A DNA stretch of 32,000 nt, taken from NCBI RefSeq assembly GCF_018398935.1, contig NZ_CP074694.1, forward strand, positions 3,960,001 to 3,992,000, in the 5' to 3' direction. Every line of letters starts with the position of its first letter. Position 1 is the stretch's first letter. Made by a program: the position numbers and the translations under genes. The DNA comes from Telmatocola sphagniphila (GTDB lineage Bacteria > Planctomycetota > Planctomycetia > Gemmatales > Gemmataceae). The notes below the pieces were generated by a model. It ran no database searches. It saw nothing but the letters and a program-made list of their open reading frames with translations, and was not told where the DNA came from. Shown here piece by piece: positions 29,312 through 31,517 of this stretch.

Positions 29312-29791
29312 CTACCAAGATAGATTTAACAGGTCTTTAATGAGATGATGAATGTCCATCTCTGAGAGGTGACCAAAACTGATCGAAATGAATTGGCCGT
29401 TCAGGATAGTGGCCCAAATAGGGCTCTTGTCTGCTCTGCCGCTTATCGTGATACGTCGCAGTTTGTTCGATTCCACAACTTCGATGTCAACGGACTCATT
29501 CATAGCAGCTTTCGTAAGTGGTAACCAAGTTAAATTTTCATCTGGATAGTCAAAAGGACGTAAACCTAGCCTCAAATGCTGTCCATATTGCTTCATAATA
29601 TTTGAGGCAATATTGGCAGACTCGAGATCTTGAATACTCCATACCGAGAAACTCACTACCAACCATTTTCCTTTGGTTAGAATATCTTCTATAGAAGAAG
29701 GTGCGATTGTGAGCGGAATAATGTATGGAGAATCATCTGTTAATTCGATTTGAGATCGGCCCTCAGAATTACTCGTAAGTTTAAATCCCAT
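29312..29791 (-). CDS. Putative cognate immunity protein of the Rhs-CT toxin
   Basis: 159-aa ORF starting 3 nt after the toxin stop, co-oriented, with the same low GC. No motif recognised. The call rests on position only. Confidence 0.5.
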   Translation of the reverse strand: MGFKLTSNSEGRSQIELTDDSPYIIPLTIAPSSIEDILTKGKWLVVSFSVWSIQDLESANIASNIMKQYGQHLRLGLRPFDYPDENLTWLPLTKAAMNESVDIEVVESNKLRRITISGRADKSPIWATILNGQFISISFGHLSEMDIHHLIKDLLNLSW

Positions 29792-29794
29792 AGT

Positions 29795-31270
29795 TTACTT
29801 CACCGTAATGATGTTCGTGTACAACGAACCGCCCACATCGTTCTTGGATGGAAGTACGATCTGGTATACTTTTCCACCCAGTAAATTCGCAATTTTTTTA
29901 TGCGCTTCGATGACTTCCGGCGCATTTGGCCCAACCAATCTTACTTCTCCGCCAGGTTTAAGAACTCTCTGGATTTCGGAAATTGTACCGGGCCGGATAG
30001 GTGCATTCTCCAAAAAAATTACATCAACCGATTGGTCAGCGAACGGAAGTTTCTCTCCTTTACCAGGAACGCGATTTGGAATCGGACGTCCCCAGCCGCC
30101 AGTCGTCGTAGTAGTTTCGCTAGGATTCACATTGATCGCGCCAGGATTGCGACCCTCGCCACCAATATCTATCTTTACAATTTTCTCGCCAGGTAATGGC
30201 GATTTGATTTTTCGATTATGTACCCAGACTGCAAAATTCCAATCCGAGCCGCCAACAAAGTAAGTATGGTATTGATCAACCATTATATTGTATACTTTTT
30301 CAATTCGATTTATATCTTGAACCAAATTGACTGATAAATAATCTCCATTCATCGAGAGCAGTTCATCATTTACTTTTAGTTCGCTTGCAGGCACCCAGCC
30401 TCTAACAGGTACATAAAATGGGTGCTCTCCGGTAGTCAATATCTCTCGCCCTTCAACAATTAGCTTTAATATTCGTGACTCATGAATCAAAGTTTTAAGG
30501 ACCATTTTCGGTGCAATCATTCCCGTGCAGTTAAATTCGTCGCGTGAAAGAACAAAATCGCCAACTTTAATGTTTTCTATATATTTATAGCCTTCTTTTG
30601 TTAAAACTGGTGTTCTTTCCGCAAAACAAGCTTTTGTGCCCCATTTTAAGACATACTCTGCCGCTTTACCAAGATATTTCAGAACTTTTGCTGGAGTCAA
30701 TTCCACTATGGTTTGGGCTGTTTTTCCGACTCCGCGCCAATAATTGTGATTCCAGAAGGCATCTATTGCCTCGCCTGCGGTTCCAATCGGGGTCAGACCA
30801 ATAATAAATTTTCCAACGTCTTCGCTAGTCACTTCATCCTTTGGTCGAGGATATTCATATCCTCTTTTAACATCCTGAGGATTCACAACACGAATTGTTG
30901 GAGGTGTTTGAGGCGTACGTGCATCATTATGAATAATATTCTGCTGGCGTGGAACTTCTACTCCTTCAGGTTTTAGACTCTCGATGACTTCTGGATCATA
31001 AATAGTTCCTCGACGATTTGGCAGAATTCGTACTGAATCTTTATAAGGGCCGTCTAAAATCAAGCCTGGTGTTCCACCTGGTAGCGTAAATGGTTGCTTC
31101 TGCCCTGGGGGTGGAGGGTCCGCCCAAAGACCACTTGGATCAATAGTATTGGTGACATCATTCCCCACATACCTCCTAATATTAGCATCCCCACCGGCAA
31201 ACCCGATCGGATCTTCGGACATCCACTGTCCGAGTTGGGGGTTGTAAGTTCGCCATTCCGCAAAATCCAA
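29795..31270 (-). CDS. Rhs C-terminal toxin cassette: Rhs core tail, PT-TG, PT-HINT, then a class-I methyltransferase-fold tip
   Basis: The Rhs core end is ...GLDFAEWRTYNPQLGQWMSEDPIGFAGGDANIRRYVGNDVTNTIDPSGL. The frame is open upstream to 31339, and the listed start is an internal TTG. PT-TG-like GLTPIGTAGEAIDAF. The Hint domain runs from C215 to HN352 (CFAERTPVL...AVWVHN, nt 30215-30628). The tip (nt 29798-30214) has KIDIGGEG, LPFADQSVDVIFL and IQRVLKPGGEVRL. Confidence 0.8.
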   Translation of the reverse strand: MDFAEWRTYNPQLGQWMSEDPIGFAGGDANIRRYVGNDVTNTIDPSGLWADPPPPGQKQPFTLPGGTPGLILDGPYKDSVRILPNRRGTIYDPEVIESLKPEGVEVPRQQNIIHNDARTPQTPPTIRVVNPQDVKRGYEYPRPKDEVTSEDVGKFIIGLTPIGTAGEAIDAFWNHNYWRGVGKTAQTIVELTPAKVLKYLGKAAEYVLKWGTKACFAERTPVLTKEGYKYIENIKVGDFVLSRDEFNCTGMIAPKMVLKTLIHESRILKLIVEGREILTTGEHPFYVPVRGWVPASELKVNDELLSMNGDYLSVNLVQDINRIEKVYNIMVDQYHTYFVGGSDWNFAVWVHNRKIKSPLPGEKIVKIDIGGEGRNPGAINVNPSETTTTTGGWGRPIPNRVPGKGEKLPFADQSVDVIFLENAPIRPGTISEIQRVLKPGGEVRLVGPNAPEVIEAHKKIANLLGGKVYQIVLPSKNDVGGSLYTNIITVK

Positions 31271-31517
31271 ACCGTTCGATTGATCACTTCTTAAACCGGC
31301 GGGGTGGCACTGGTAAGCAAACCAAATCGACGCAAGTCGTTATTGAGTAACAGTTTGTGTGGCACTGGTTACTTGCTGTTTTTTTTATTGATCTTTGCGA
31401 ATTGTAGGACTCAATCCTCGTCCAATTTCCGGATAGGGCTAGGAGGAGTATAGGGCTCCCCCTTCCCTCCAAACCGGACGGGCGGATCTCCCGCATCCGG
31501 CTTTCCGGTCAGTGGTC

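Follow-up and report, generated by a model that had tools for sequence, protein, structure and literature searches.

We report that a 32,000-nucleotide (nt) stretch of the genome of the planctomycete Telmatocola sphagniphila (contig NZ_CP074694.1, positions 3,960,001 to 3,992,000; hereafter the window, in whose positions all coordinates are given) carries two adjacent open reading frames (ORFs) that very probably form a toxin-immunity cassette. All features of the cassette lie on the minus strand. The first ORF (29795..31339), from its reading along the frame, strings together the tail of an Rhs core, a linker, a PT-HINT autoprotease and a C-terminal toxin tip with a predicted methyltransferase fold, and the second (29312..29791), to judge from its homologues, a structural model and the position of the gene, encodes a putative immunity protein of 159 aa with a thioredoxin fold devoid of cysteines. 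Weighing a well-supported architecture against a chemistry that is predicted, we give the overall explanation of this cassette a probability of roughly 0.55.

A first line of evidence comes from the distribution of the tip, a domain of 138 aa (29798..30211) delimited by profiles, a model and conservation, and belonging to a family that we name 'DIGGEGR' after its glycine loop (subfamily TSTTG/ENAPI). An exhaustive profile search returned 496 cluster representatives at E<=1e-3, of which 240 also reached E<=1e-10. When it is part of a multidomain protein, the domain is nearly always found no more than ~30 residues from the C-terminus, the clear exception being locus L025, where it is N-terminal. 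It is carried by full-length Rhs proteins with YD repeats and DPxGL (P0064, 1458 aa; P0065; P0069; P0099, 2201 aa; P0102; P0192, 2248 aa), by toxins of extracellular contractile injection systems (eCIS) with the eCIS_core domain (PF13699, formerly DUF4157; P0197 and P0175 by Pfam, P0196 by an HExxH motif found with a regular expression), and by giant Thr/Ser-rich proteins (P0067, L008, L010); it follows HINT, as in the window, in P0006 and P0010, and a plain signal peptide in P0005, P0018 and P0031. By regular-expression scoring, at least 13 proteins with Rhs marks and 5 with the eCIS-core motif have it at their very C-terminus, and Pfam confirmed four carriers (RHS_repeat in P0064 and P0102, eCIS_core in P0197 and P0175). 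For a single C-terminal domain to turn up behind many unrelated N-terminal architectures is the hallmark of a polymorphic-toxin domain (Zhang et al. 2012, PMC3482391). Since the tip is found on many unrelated delivery proteins, we conclude from its distribution that it is a recurrent polymorphic-toxin domain; a sizeable family with at least four delivery architectures is, moreover, a general module and not the curiosity of a single genome.

The same data bear on the idea that what we call a tip is just a housekeeping methyltransferase domain, joined to the frame by chance or by mis-assembly. The public name of the ORF ('methyltransferase domain-containing protein') and the many stand-alone homologues would agree with it, but the domain is C-terminal in the Rhs-marked and eCIS-core-motif proteins just counted, which come from unrelated organisms, HINT release domains precede it, and a small partner gene is dedicated to it, so that a chance fusion is hardly credible. 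The stand-alone homologues are largely those of a second subfamily. All the fused toxins examined by eye belong to subfamily A, which is defined by a TSTTG loop and by EN[AT]P[IL] after strand 4 and includes the window tip, and a motif regular expression assigned 18 of 29 fused forms to it. Subfamily B (KTLGP/ERTPL) is mostly stand-alone, ~125-150 aa long and common in Planctomycetota; ORFs with longer flanks were found at L025, L034 and L056. Its neighbourhoods are heterogeneous (permease, M50 peptidase, efflux, P-type ATPase and cytochrome genes), with no conserved neighbour or immunity partner and no hint of a function. From these sequences, subfamily B is probably the housekeeping relative of the toxin domain and may be its ancestor.

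The second line of evidence is the partner gene. The 159-aa ORF begins 3 nt past the toxin stop (TAA ACT ATG) and its product is 100% identical to KIH39_15910. The family is rare, with 23 proteins among 5.8 billion, profile query included. Homologues come immediately after the tip, 0-5 nt away or overlapping it, at L002, L005-L012, L024, L069 and L070, and the tip-partner pair is conserved in at least 13 loci that span Rhs, eCIS, giant-protein and short forms. At L002, the 68 nt that precede the immunity homologue encode the C-terminal end of a tip (...FPAKNDVDGAVFTKIIVPAG, then a stop). BLAST comparison with the window protein gave E values of 1e-14 to 1e-42 for L005-L012 and L024, and of 1e-14 to 1e-65 when eleven of the loci are taken together, and the partners at L069 (after a 2201-aa full-length Rhs) and L070 (after an eCIS_core toxin) were assigned by motifs shared in their translations. 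When the immunity-family profile was run against all ORFs lying <=2.5 kb from 64 genomic tip loci, the family was found beside subfamily A tips only. The identity matrices of tips and partners are correlated (r=0.56, permutation p ~2e-4, 12 pairs), a correlation to which shared host ancestry contributes, and the partners diverge faster than the tips (mean identity 29% versus 50%). Faster divergence together with co-variation with the toxin is the usual behaviour of immunity proteins.

The AlphaFold2 model of the 159-aa protein (predicted local distance difference test, pLDDT, 87.6; predicted template modelling score, pTM, 0.85) has a thioredoxin fold, its top fold matches in the PDB are all thioredoxins (TMt 0.65-0.71), and the family has a weak sequence match to Trx2 (E=0.003). 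The position of the WCGPC motif reads WSIQD and the protein contains no cysteine at all; it thus lacks the CxxC redox motif, and redox chemistry is impossible for it. The cis-Pro loop is kept as SPIW, with P124 and the Trp invariant, and the invariant residues of the family are W51, D55, R78-P79, P124 and W126. Matches of the immunity profile to WD40 proteins were discarded as summed-repeat artefacts in which no single stretch was significant. Known immunity families (Pfam Imm families, SUKH and others) were searched without success, the protein having no Pfam, NCBIfam or PADLOC match; PADLOC matched neither the toxin nor the immunity protein. A preliminary description made from the letters of the sequence had proposed a coupled immunity gene starting 3 nt after the stop, with a thioredoxin-like but cysteine-free product and no recognisable motif, and on each of these points it agrees with what we find: the start and the absence of cysteines are plain in the sequence, the family databases are empty, the modelled fold and its Foldseek matches are those of thioredoxins, and the coupling holds in the at least 13 tip loci, with co-variation. 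An immunity role for the 159-aa protein is thus very likely, as far as gene order and homologues can tell. Because its invariant residues lie on the face with which thioredoxins hold their client proteins, the protein probably blocks the toxin by direct binding through this modelled face.

A thioredoxin fold next to an Rhs tip could also be read differently, as that of an activating chaperone or cofactor and not of an immunity protein, in the manner of TrxA for the Rhs ADP-ribosyltransferase TreX. The PDB entries 8s2n and 9gco are indeed among the fold matches of the 159-aa model, and an Rhs toxin has been found to need thioredoxin as a chaperone, independently of redox activity (PMC11606950). 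The gene, however, stands at the canonical immunity position 3' of the tip in every delivery architecture, orphan and short cassettes included, its product evolves faster than the toxin while co-varying with it, and a chaperone supplied by the producer would be of no use in the target cell, all of which makes this alternative very unlikely. One might speculate further that the immunity protein is a decoy of the cellular thioredoxin, the toxin itself needing thioredoxin as a chaperone, a scenario that we hold to be remote.

As to the fold of the tip, an AlphaFold2 model built with 27 homologues (pLDDT 88, pTM 0.81) shows strand 1 (13-16, in tip numbering) with the glycine loop after it and strand 2 (26-28), from which a long ordered loop (29-61) leads to strand 4 (62-68); helix D, strand 5, helix E and a hairpin of strands 6 and 7 complete the fold. 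Strands 1, 2, 4, 5, 6 and 7 are therefore kept, and strand 3 is a remnant of 2 residues. Foldseek comparison with the PDB gave 116 matches at E<=1e-3 (TMq ~0.6), and the top 50 are class-I S-adenosylmethionine (SAM) methyltransferases nearly throughout, including the 16S rRNA m1A1408 enzymes 5d1h and 4rx1; the exception, at rank 7 (7wns), is a silkworm ENF-peptide-binding protein that is not described as a methyltransferase. At the sequence level, Pfam Methyltransf_11 gives a partial match to the tip, with 28.4 bits (cut-off 21.2), and NCBIfam gives weak matches to RlmA(I) and RlmA(II). In a profile search of the PDB sequences, the best genuine match was RlmA(I) (1p91), the 23S rRNA m1G745 methyltransferase (E=3e-4), the nominal top match, the LRR protein 4r5d, being again a summed-repeat artefact with no single significant stretch. 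The alignment with RlmA spans motif I to motif III, with hiDiG-GeGRy facing VLDIGcGEGYY in the glycine loop, LPFADQSVDVIFLENAP facing LPFSDTSMDAIIRIYAP in the middle block and RVLKPGG facing RVVKPGG in the third. This alignment leads us to regard the tip as a heavily reduced homologue of RlmA-type methyltransferases, and its model leaves little doubt about a class-I methyltransferase fold.

Whether this fold is still that of a methyltransferase is a more delicate matter. In 225 domain sequences, D15, G17, G18, E19, G20, A25, N27, N29, G41, I44, P45, P56, E68, P71, E79, R82, L92 and H104 are each at least 90% conserved, and the conserved polar residues D15, E19, N27, N29 and E68 lie at the C-terminal ends of strands 1, 2 and 4. 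These strand ends form the cofactor and substrate cleft of class-I methyltransferases, and the placement of the invariant polar residues in the model suggests an enzyme. Several observations nevertheless weigh against a conventional SAM-dependent toxin. The Methyltransf_11 match covers positions 46-93 of 95 only, in other words the second half of the profile. Helices A and B, which should follow strands 1 and 2, are absent from the model, where helices D and E are the only ones. The glycine loop, D-I-G-G-E-G-R, is one residue shorter than the D-I-G-C-G-E-G of RlmA and departs from the canonical motif I, (D/E)xGxGxG, although it is invariant in the 225 sequences. The acidic ribose-binding residue at the end of strand 2 is replaced by an invariant Asn (N29, in NVNP), and the residue that we take, from an alignment by eye, to correspond to the adenine-contacting Asp of GDAExLPF is variable in the family. 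The rRNA base methylations carried out by relatives such as RlmA and NpmA are tolerated by cells, and the stand-alone occurrence of subfamily B without an immunity neighbour indicates that the fold is not intrinsically toxic. Given the altered loop, the missing helices and the Asn in place of the acidic residue, SAM binding and methyl transfer stay predictions. The methyltransferase tip of the preliminary description is therefore upheld in its fold by AlphaFold2 and Foldseek, while its 'class-I SAM pattern' was an overstatement; of the canonical SAM-binding features, the glycine loop and the acidic residue are altered.

These departures can be turned into an argument for a methyltransferase fold with another chemistry, in which the tip would use a different nucleotide or cofactor, or would consume SAM without methylating a macromolecule (cleavage or depletion, aminocarboxypropyl or other transfer). 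Of the four canonical SAM-contact elements, three are altered in the tip family and yet invariant within it, which suggests selection for a different ligand geometry; a family-specific invariant loop, G41-x-x-I44-P45, takes the place of helix B and of most of strand 3; and depletion of cofactors is a common theme among Rhs tips. On the other hand, the nearest relatives in sequence and in structure are all bona fide methyltransferases, and the GEG(R/Y)Y loop, LPF...AP and RV.KPGG are common to the tip and RlmA, which binds SAM normally. We consider another chemistry unlikely, though it is the main rival of methyl transfer. SAM-dependent methyl transfer, which the sequence relationships would favour as the killing chemistry, is itself put forward with a confidence somewhat short of even.

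The mechanism that we propose would run as follows. The core tail with its DPxG motifs would serve as a homology patch through which the orphan is recombined onto a full-length rhs gene (cf. PMC3967940). Once on a full-length Rhs protein, and by extension from what is known of these families, the aspartyl protease would cleave after DPSGL, and PT-HINT would then cleave after its His-Asn, liberating the 138-aa enzyme. This enzyme, a pared-down class-I methyltransferase fold of presumably RlmA-like origin, would use SAM to methylate an essential and conserved intracellular target; the need for an immunity gene even with eCIS delivery implies that the target is also present in the producer. Our best guess would be a base in rRNA or tRNA, with a block of translation as the outcome; it is suggested by analogy, because the nearest relatives are RlmA and the m1A1408 enzymes, and RNA as the target is doubtful. 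The thioredoxin-fold protein would neutralise the toxin by binding to it. Put in its most complete form, the proposal is that the 'DIGGEGR' domain may be the first methyltransferase-type interbacterial toxin, deployed through Rhs, eCIS and other delivery proteins, killing by methylation of an essential target, for instance rRNA or tRNA, and held in check by a thioredoxin-derived pseudo-enzyme; this full version is tentative, and the odds are against all of its parts being right together.

The delivery part of the cassette is better defined. The toxin frame comprises 514 codons and a stop, bounded by a stop at ~31342 and by TAA at 29797-29795. Its first mechanical start is the TTG at 31270, which gives 491 aa; residues are numbered here on the 514-aa read-through unless the 491-aa (TTG-start) numbering is stated. 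The public calls disagree, with 475 aa (ATG at 31222), 491 aa (TTG at 31270) and 510 aa: GenBank has QVL30338.1, the 491-aa 'methyltransferase domain-containing protein', and RefSeq has WP_261353366.1, a 510-aa 'polymorphic toxin-type HINT domain-containing protein', so that between them automated annotation had spotted both domains. Residues 15-71 (31127..31297) match the NCBIfam profile Rhs_assc_core TIGR03696 (profile positions 21-76 of 76, E=1.5e-12, 47.8 bits for a cut-off of 32.5). The last ~57 residues of the Rhs core are kept, reading DPIGF, 19 aa and DPSGL, with both DPxG motifs. In a characterised Rhs protein, C-terminal autocleavage takes place after two DPxG(L) motifs ~17-19 residues apart, the catalytic Asp being in the second (PMC8636562), and aspartyl autocleavage is predicted after DPSGL in the window frame.

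A Pro-rich linker or pre-toxin region (30629..31126) of ~160 residues follows, without a recognisable family (nothing in Pfam at E<=10). The PT-HINT domain (30215..30628) is identified by PF07591 (E=2.8e-24, 86.4 bits for a gathering cut-off of 27.7), with C238 and H374-N375, which are C215 and H351-N352 in the 491-aa numbering, and it is predicted to release the tip; the homologues P0006 and P0010 have the same HINT-to-tip junction. Of what had been read into this part of the frame at first, the start within the end of the Rhs core is secured by a profile match above cut-off, the Hint autoprotease from C215 to HN352 by its Pfam match and located residues, and the tip of 139 aa after HN (491-aa numbering) by its length. 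A PT-TG-like segment proposed for the linker (GLTPIGTAGEAIDAF, nt 30799..30755) did not survive: neither PT-TG (PF14449) nor any other Pfam family matched the core-to-HINT region at E<=10, even with the excised pieces scanned alone, and the module was dropped.

No YD repeats or RHS_repeat shell lie upstream of the cassette within the window, the three frames of 31440-31340 being made up of stops or non-Rhs sequence, in keeping with what had been noted before. What had been overlooked is a group II intron on the same strand, directly upstream, outside the toxin (31433..31982, running off the window), recognised by its domains V-VI (Rfam RF00029, 46 bits, 31505..31433) and by the end of its maturase ORF (31982..31518; Pfam GIIM, E=2.9e-13). 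The intron terminates in ...CCCTAT at 31433, 94 nt upstream of the cassette frame. An intron splitting an intact rhs gene was ruled out, all three frames 3' of the intron being stops or non-Rhs sequence. Several transposases and a TniB-like ATPase are encoded elsewhere in the window. Lacking the N-terminal YD/RHS-repeat shell of a full-length Rhs polymorphic toxin, with an intron upstream and in transposon-rich surroundings, the cassette would therefore be filed, within a window that ends 660 nt beyond the 3' end of the intron, as an orphan Rhs C-terminal cassette. The only other contig with the cassette is a 2.2-kb Logan contig broken at both flanks, which is consistent with repeats on either side of it.

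That this copy is a dead remnant, stranded among mobile elements and never expressed or recombined, has to be considered at this point. No ATG or GTG start precedes the Rhs core tail in the toxin frame, a scan of the cassette for promoters and terminators gave counts within the shuffled expectation, and a parental rhs gene was not found within the window, three observations that sit badly with a functional toxin. A group II intron upstream and transposition genes downstream fit a remnant as well, as do the disagreement of public annotations on the start and a guanine-cytosine content below that of the backbone (0.44 for the toxin, 0.37 for HINT and 0.41 for the immunity gene, against 0.50 for the whole window), an AT-richness that had already been remarked upon and that these values bear out. 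But neither ORF is interrupted over its 514 or 159 codons, every family-invariant residue is present, and orphan cassettes often express their intact immunity genes, which then protect. Activation of such rhs orphans by recombination has, besides, been shown (PMC3967940). A dead copy is in our opinion unlikely. As no promoter or shell is visible, this copy of the orphan cassette would probably stay silent until recombination joins it to a full-length rhs gene.

Some of the homologous loci deserve a mention of their own. L003 and L004 (5549-6393 in each), on GC-rich metagenome contigs, and L013, in a Gaiellales genome, encode stand-alone subfamily A homologues of 130 aa, those of L003 and L004 being of actinobacterial type. 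At L003 and L004 a 151-aa ORF lies upstream with a 4-nt overlap and a MacB-type ABC transporter downstream; the 151-aa ORF and the tip homologue may be a toxin-antitoxin-like pair, and the former was rejected as a relative of the immunity protein, showing no similarity to it by BLAST or hhalign and no Pfam match. L067 (8729-10123) consists of a Rhs core tail, a linker and a tip that stops after the GRxIP loop, and looks like a decayed copy (pseudogene) of the same toxin type. The exceptional L025 (4641-6788) is a stop-to-stop frame with an N-terminal subfamily B domain followed by ~570 aa that resemble an amidohydrolase, representing a genuine fusion or else two neighbouring genes read as one.

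Elsewhere in the window, the TniB-like AAA_22 ATPase (27992-28666) and a 101-aa Zn-ribbon ORF (28693-28998) are the next genes beyond the 3' end of the immunity gene, on the other strand, and the regions 17521-21407 and 26976-28998 hold an ISL3 transposase fragment, a Mu-like rve transposase (780 aa) and parts of helix-turn-helix transposases. A Gabija defence system occupies 11155-16085 on the minus strand. Its GajA (14247-16085) is intact (PADLOC, E=1e-126), and GajB is split by an insertion sequence (IS), which leaves its N-terminal part at 12808-14250 and a C-terminal fragment at 11155-11595. This DDE_Tnp_1-type IS is present in two copies of 1289 bp that differ at a single base (11563-12851 and 24911-26199), with terminal inverted repeats CAGGGAAATCGC...GCGATTTCCCTG; CCAATCCTTT is found on both sides of the copy inside gajB, an apparent target-site duplication. 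Three ORFs of 255, 233 and 528 aa (5434-9292, minus strand), without a match in Pfam or PADLOC, separate a DDE_3 transposase fragment from the Gabija locus.

Most known interbacterial toxins cleave nucleic acids, lipids or the cell wall, ADP-ribosylate, deaminate, or deplete NAD or ATP, and a methyltransferase-fold toxin, if confirmed, would add a new chemistry to this list. It would also mean that a housekeeping RNA-modifying scaffold can be reduced to ~125 residues and weaponised, and a very small, well-folded enzyme with a matched inhibitor would be useful for mechanistic and tool-building work. No study of the toxin or of the 159-aa protein was found in the searchable literature. In the portion of the Zhang et al. 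2012 catalogue (PMC3482391) covered here, neither a methyltransferase toxin nor a thioredoxin immunity protein is listed, 'methyl' occurring once, for restriction-modification, and 'thioredoxin' never. The word 'methyltransferase' is absent from the main texts of two eCIS toxin surveys, and neither it nor 'thioredoxin' occurs in the systematic toxin-discovery preprint of Nachmias or in the Pandoomain survey of PT-TG architectures; phrase searches of open-access text for methyltransferase toxins returned anti-host effectors only, such as NleE. The preliminary description, which took a methyltransferase tip to be possibly new among polymorphic toxins, is thus in line with the open-access polymorphic-toxin and eCIS texts that we searched. 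By that literature, this looks like an undescribed toxin domain and immunity family within a standard polymorphic-toxin system, and the thioredoxin-fold immunity family too appears to be previously undescribed.

Among known systems, the closest in layout are the orphan rhs-CT/rhsI cassettes of Enterobacteria, for example those of Salmonella Typhimurium LT2 (PMC3967940), which likewise have a core fragment with DPxGL, a variable toxin and a coupled immunity gene, and likewise lack a YD shell and a start of their own and are of low GC. The window cassette differs from them in its planctomycete host, in an extra pre-toxin region of ~300 aa with PT-HINT, and in the group II intron at the position where rhs would be expected. 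Its HINT domain resembles PT-HINT (PF07591; Zhang et al. 2012, PMC3482391) in its profile match, N-terminal Cys, C-terminal His-Asn and position before the tip; the window adds the Rhs aspartyl site, giving two predicted release steps, and PT-TG, the companion of PT-HINT in one architecture group that has been described (PMC13483458), is not detectable. For the tip, the best relative among solved structures is RlmA(I)/RlmA(II), acting on 23S rRNA m1G745/748 (PDB 1p91), with which it has in common the class-I fold and the motifs DIGxGEG(Y/R)Y, LPF(S/A)D..(M/V)D.I....AP and ARV(V/L)KPGG. At 125-138 aa against the 269 aa of RlmA, the tip has neither the Zn-finger domain for RNA recognition nor helices A and B, its glycine loop is one residue shorter, and it has an Asn for the ribose-binding Asp and comes with toxin-delivery proteins and an immunity partner.

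In its proposed logic, a small enzymatic tip that modifies a component of translation and has a cognate immunity protein, the toxin would resemble two small Rhs tips, Tre23, which ADP-ribosylates 23S rRNA (PMC8661411), and TreTu, which modifies EF-Tu (PMC9825190); these, however, have an ADP-ribosyltransferase fold and use NAD+, where the window tip has a methyltransferase fold and presumably uses SAM. The immunity protein has in common with the thioredoxin TrxA, the chaperone of TreX (PMC11606950), the fold, the Trp of WCGPC and the cis-Pro loop, and differs from it in having no cysteines, in an N-terminal extension of three strands, in an insert at 94-120 and in being encoded by the toxin locus. 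SAM-dependent methylation as a means of attack by a secreted bacterial protein, the chemistry predicted for the tip, is known from NleE/OspZ (PMC4239114), although NleE has a different fold, host-protein targets, type III secretion and no immunity gene, and is not a polymorphic toxin. Set against these systems, what is unusual here is the toxin fold, the thioredoxin-fold immunity protein, and the combination of a Rhs cleavage site with PT-HINT.

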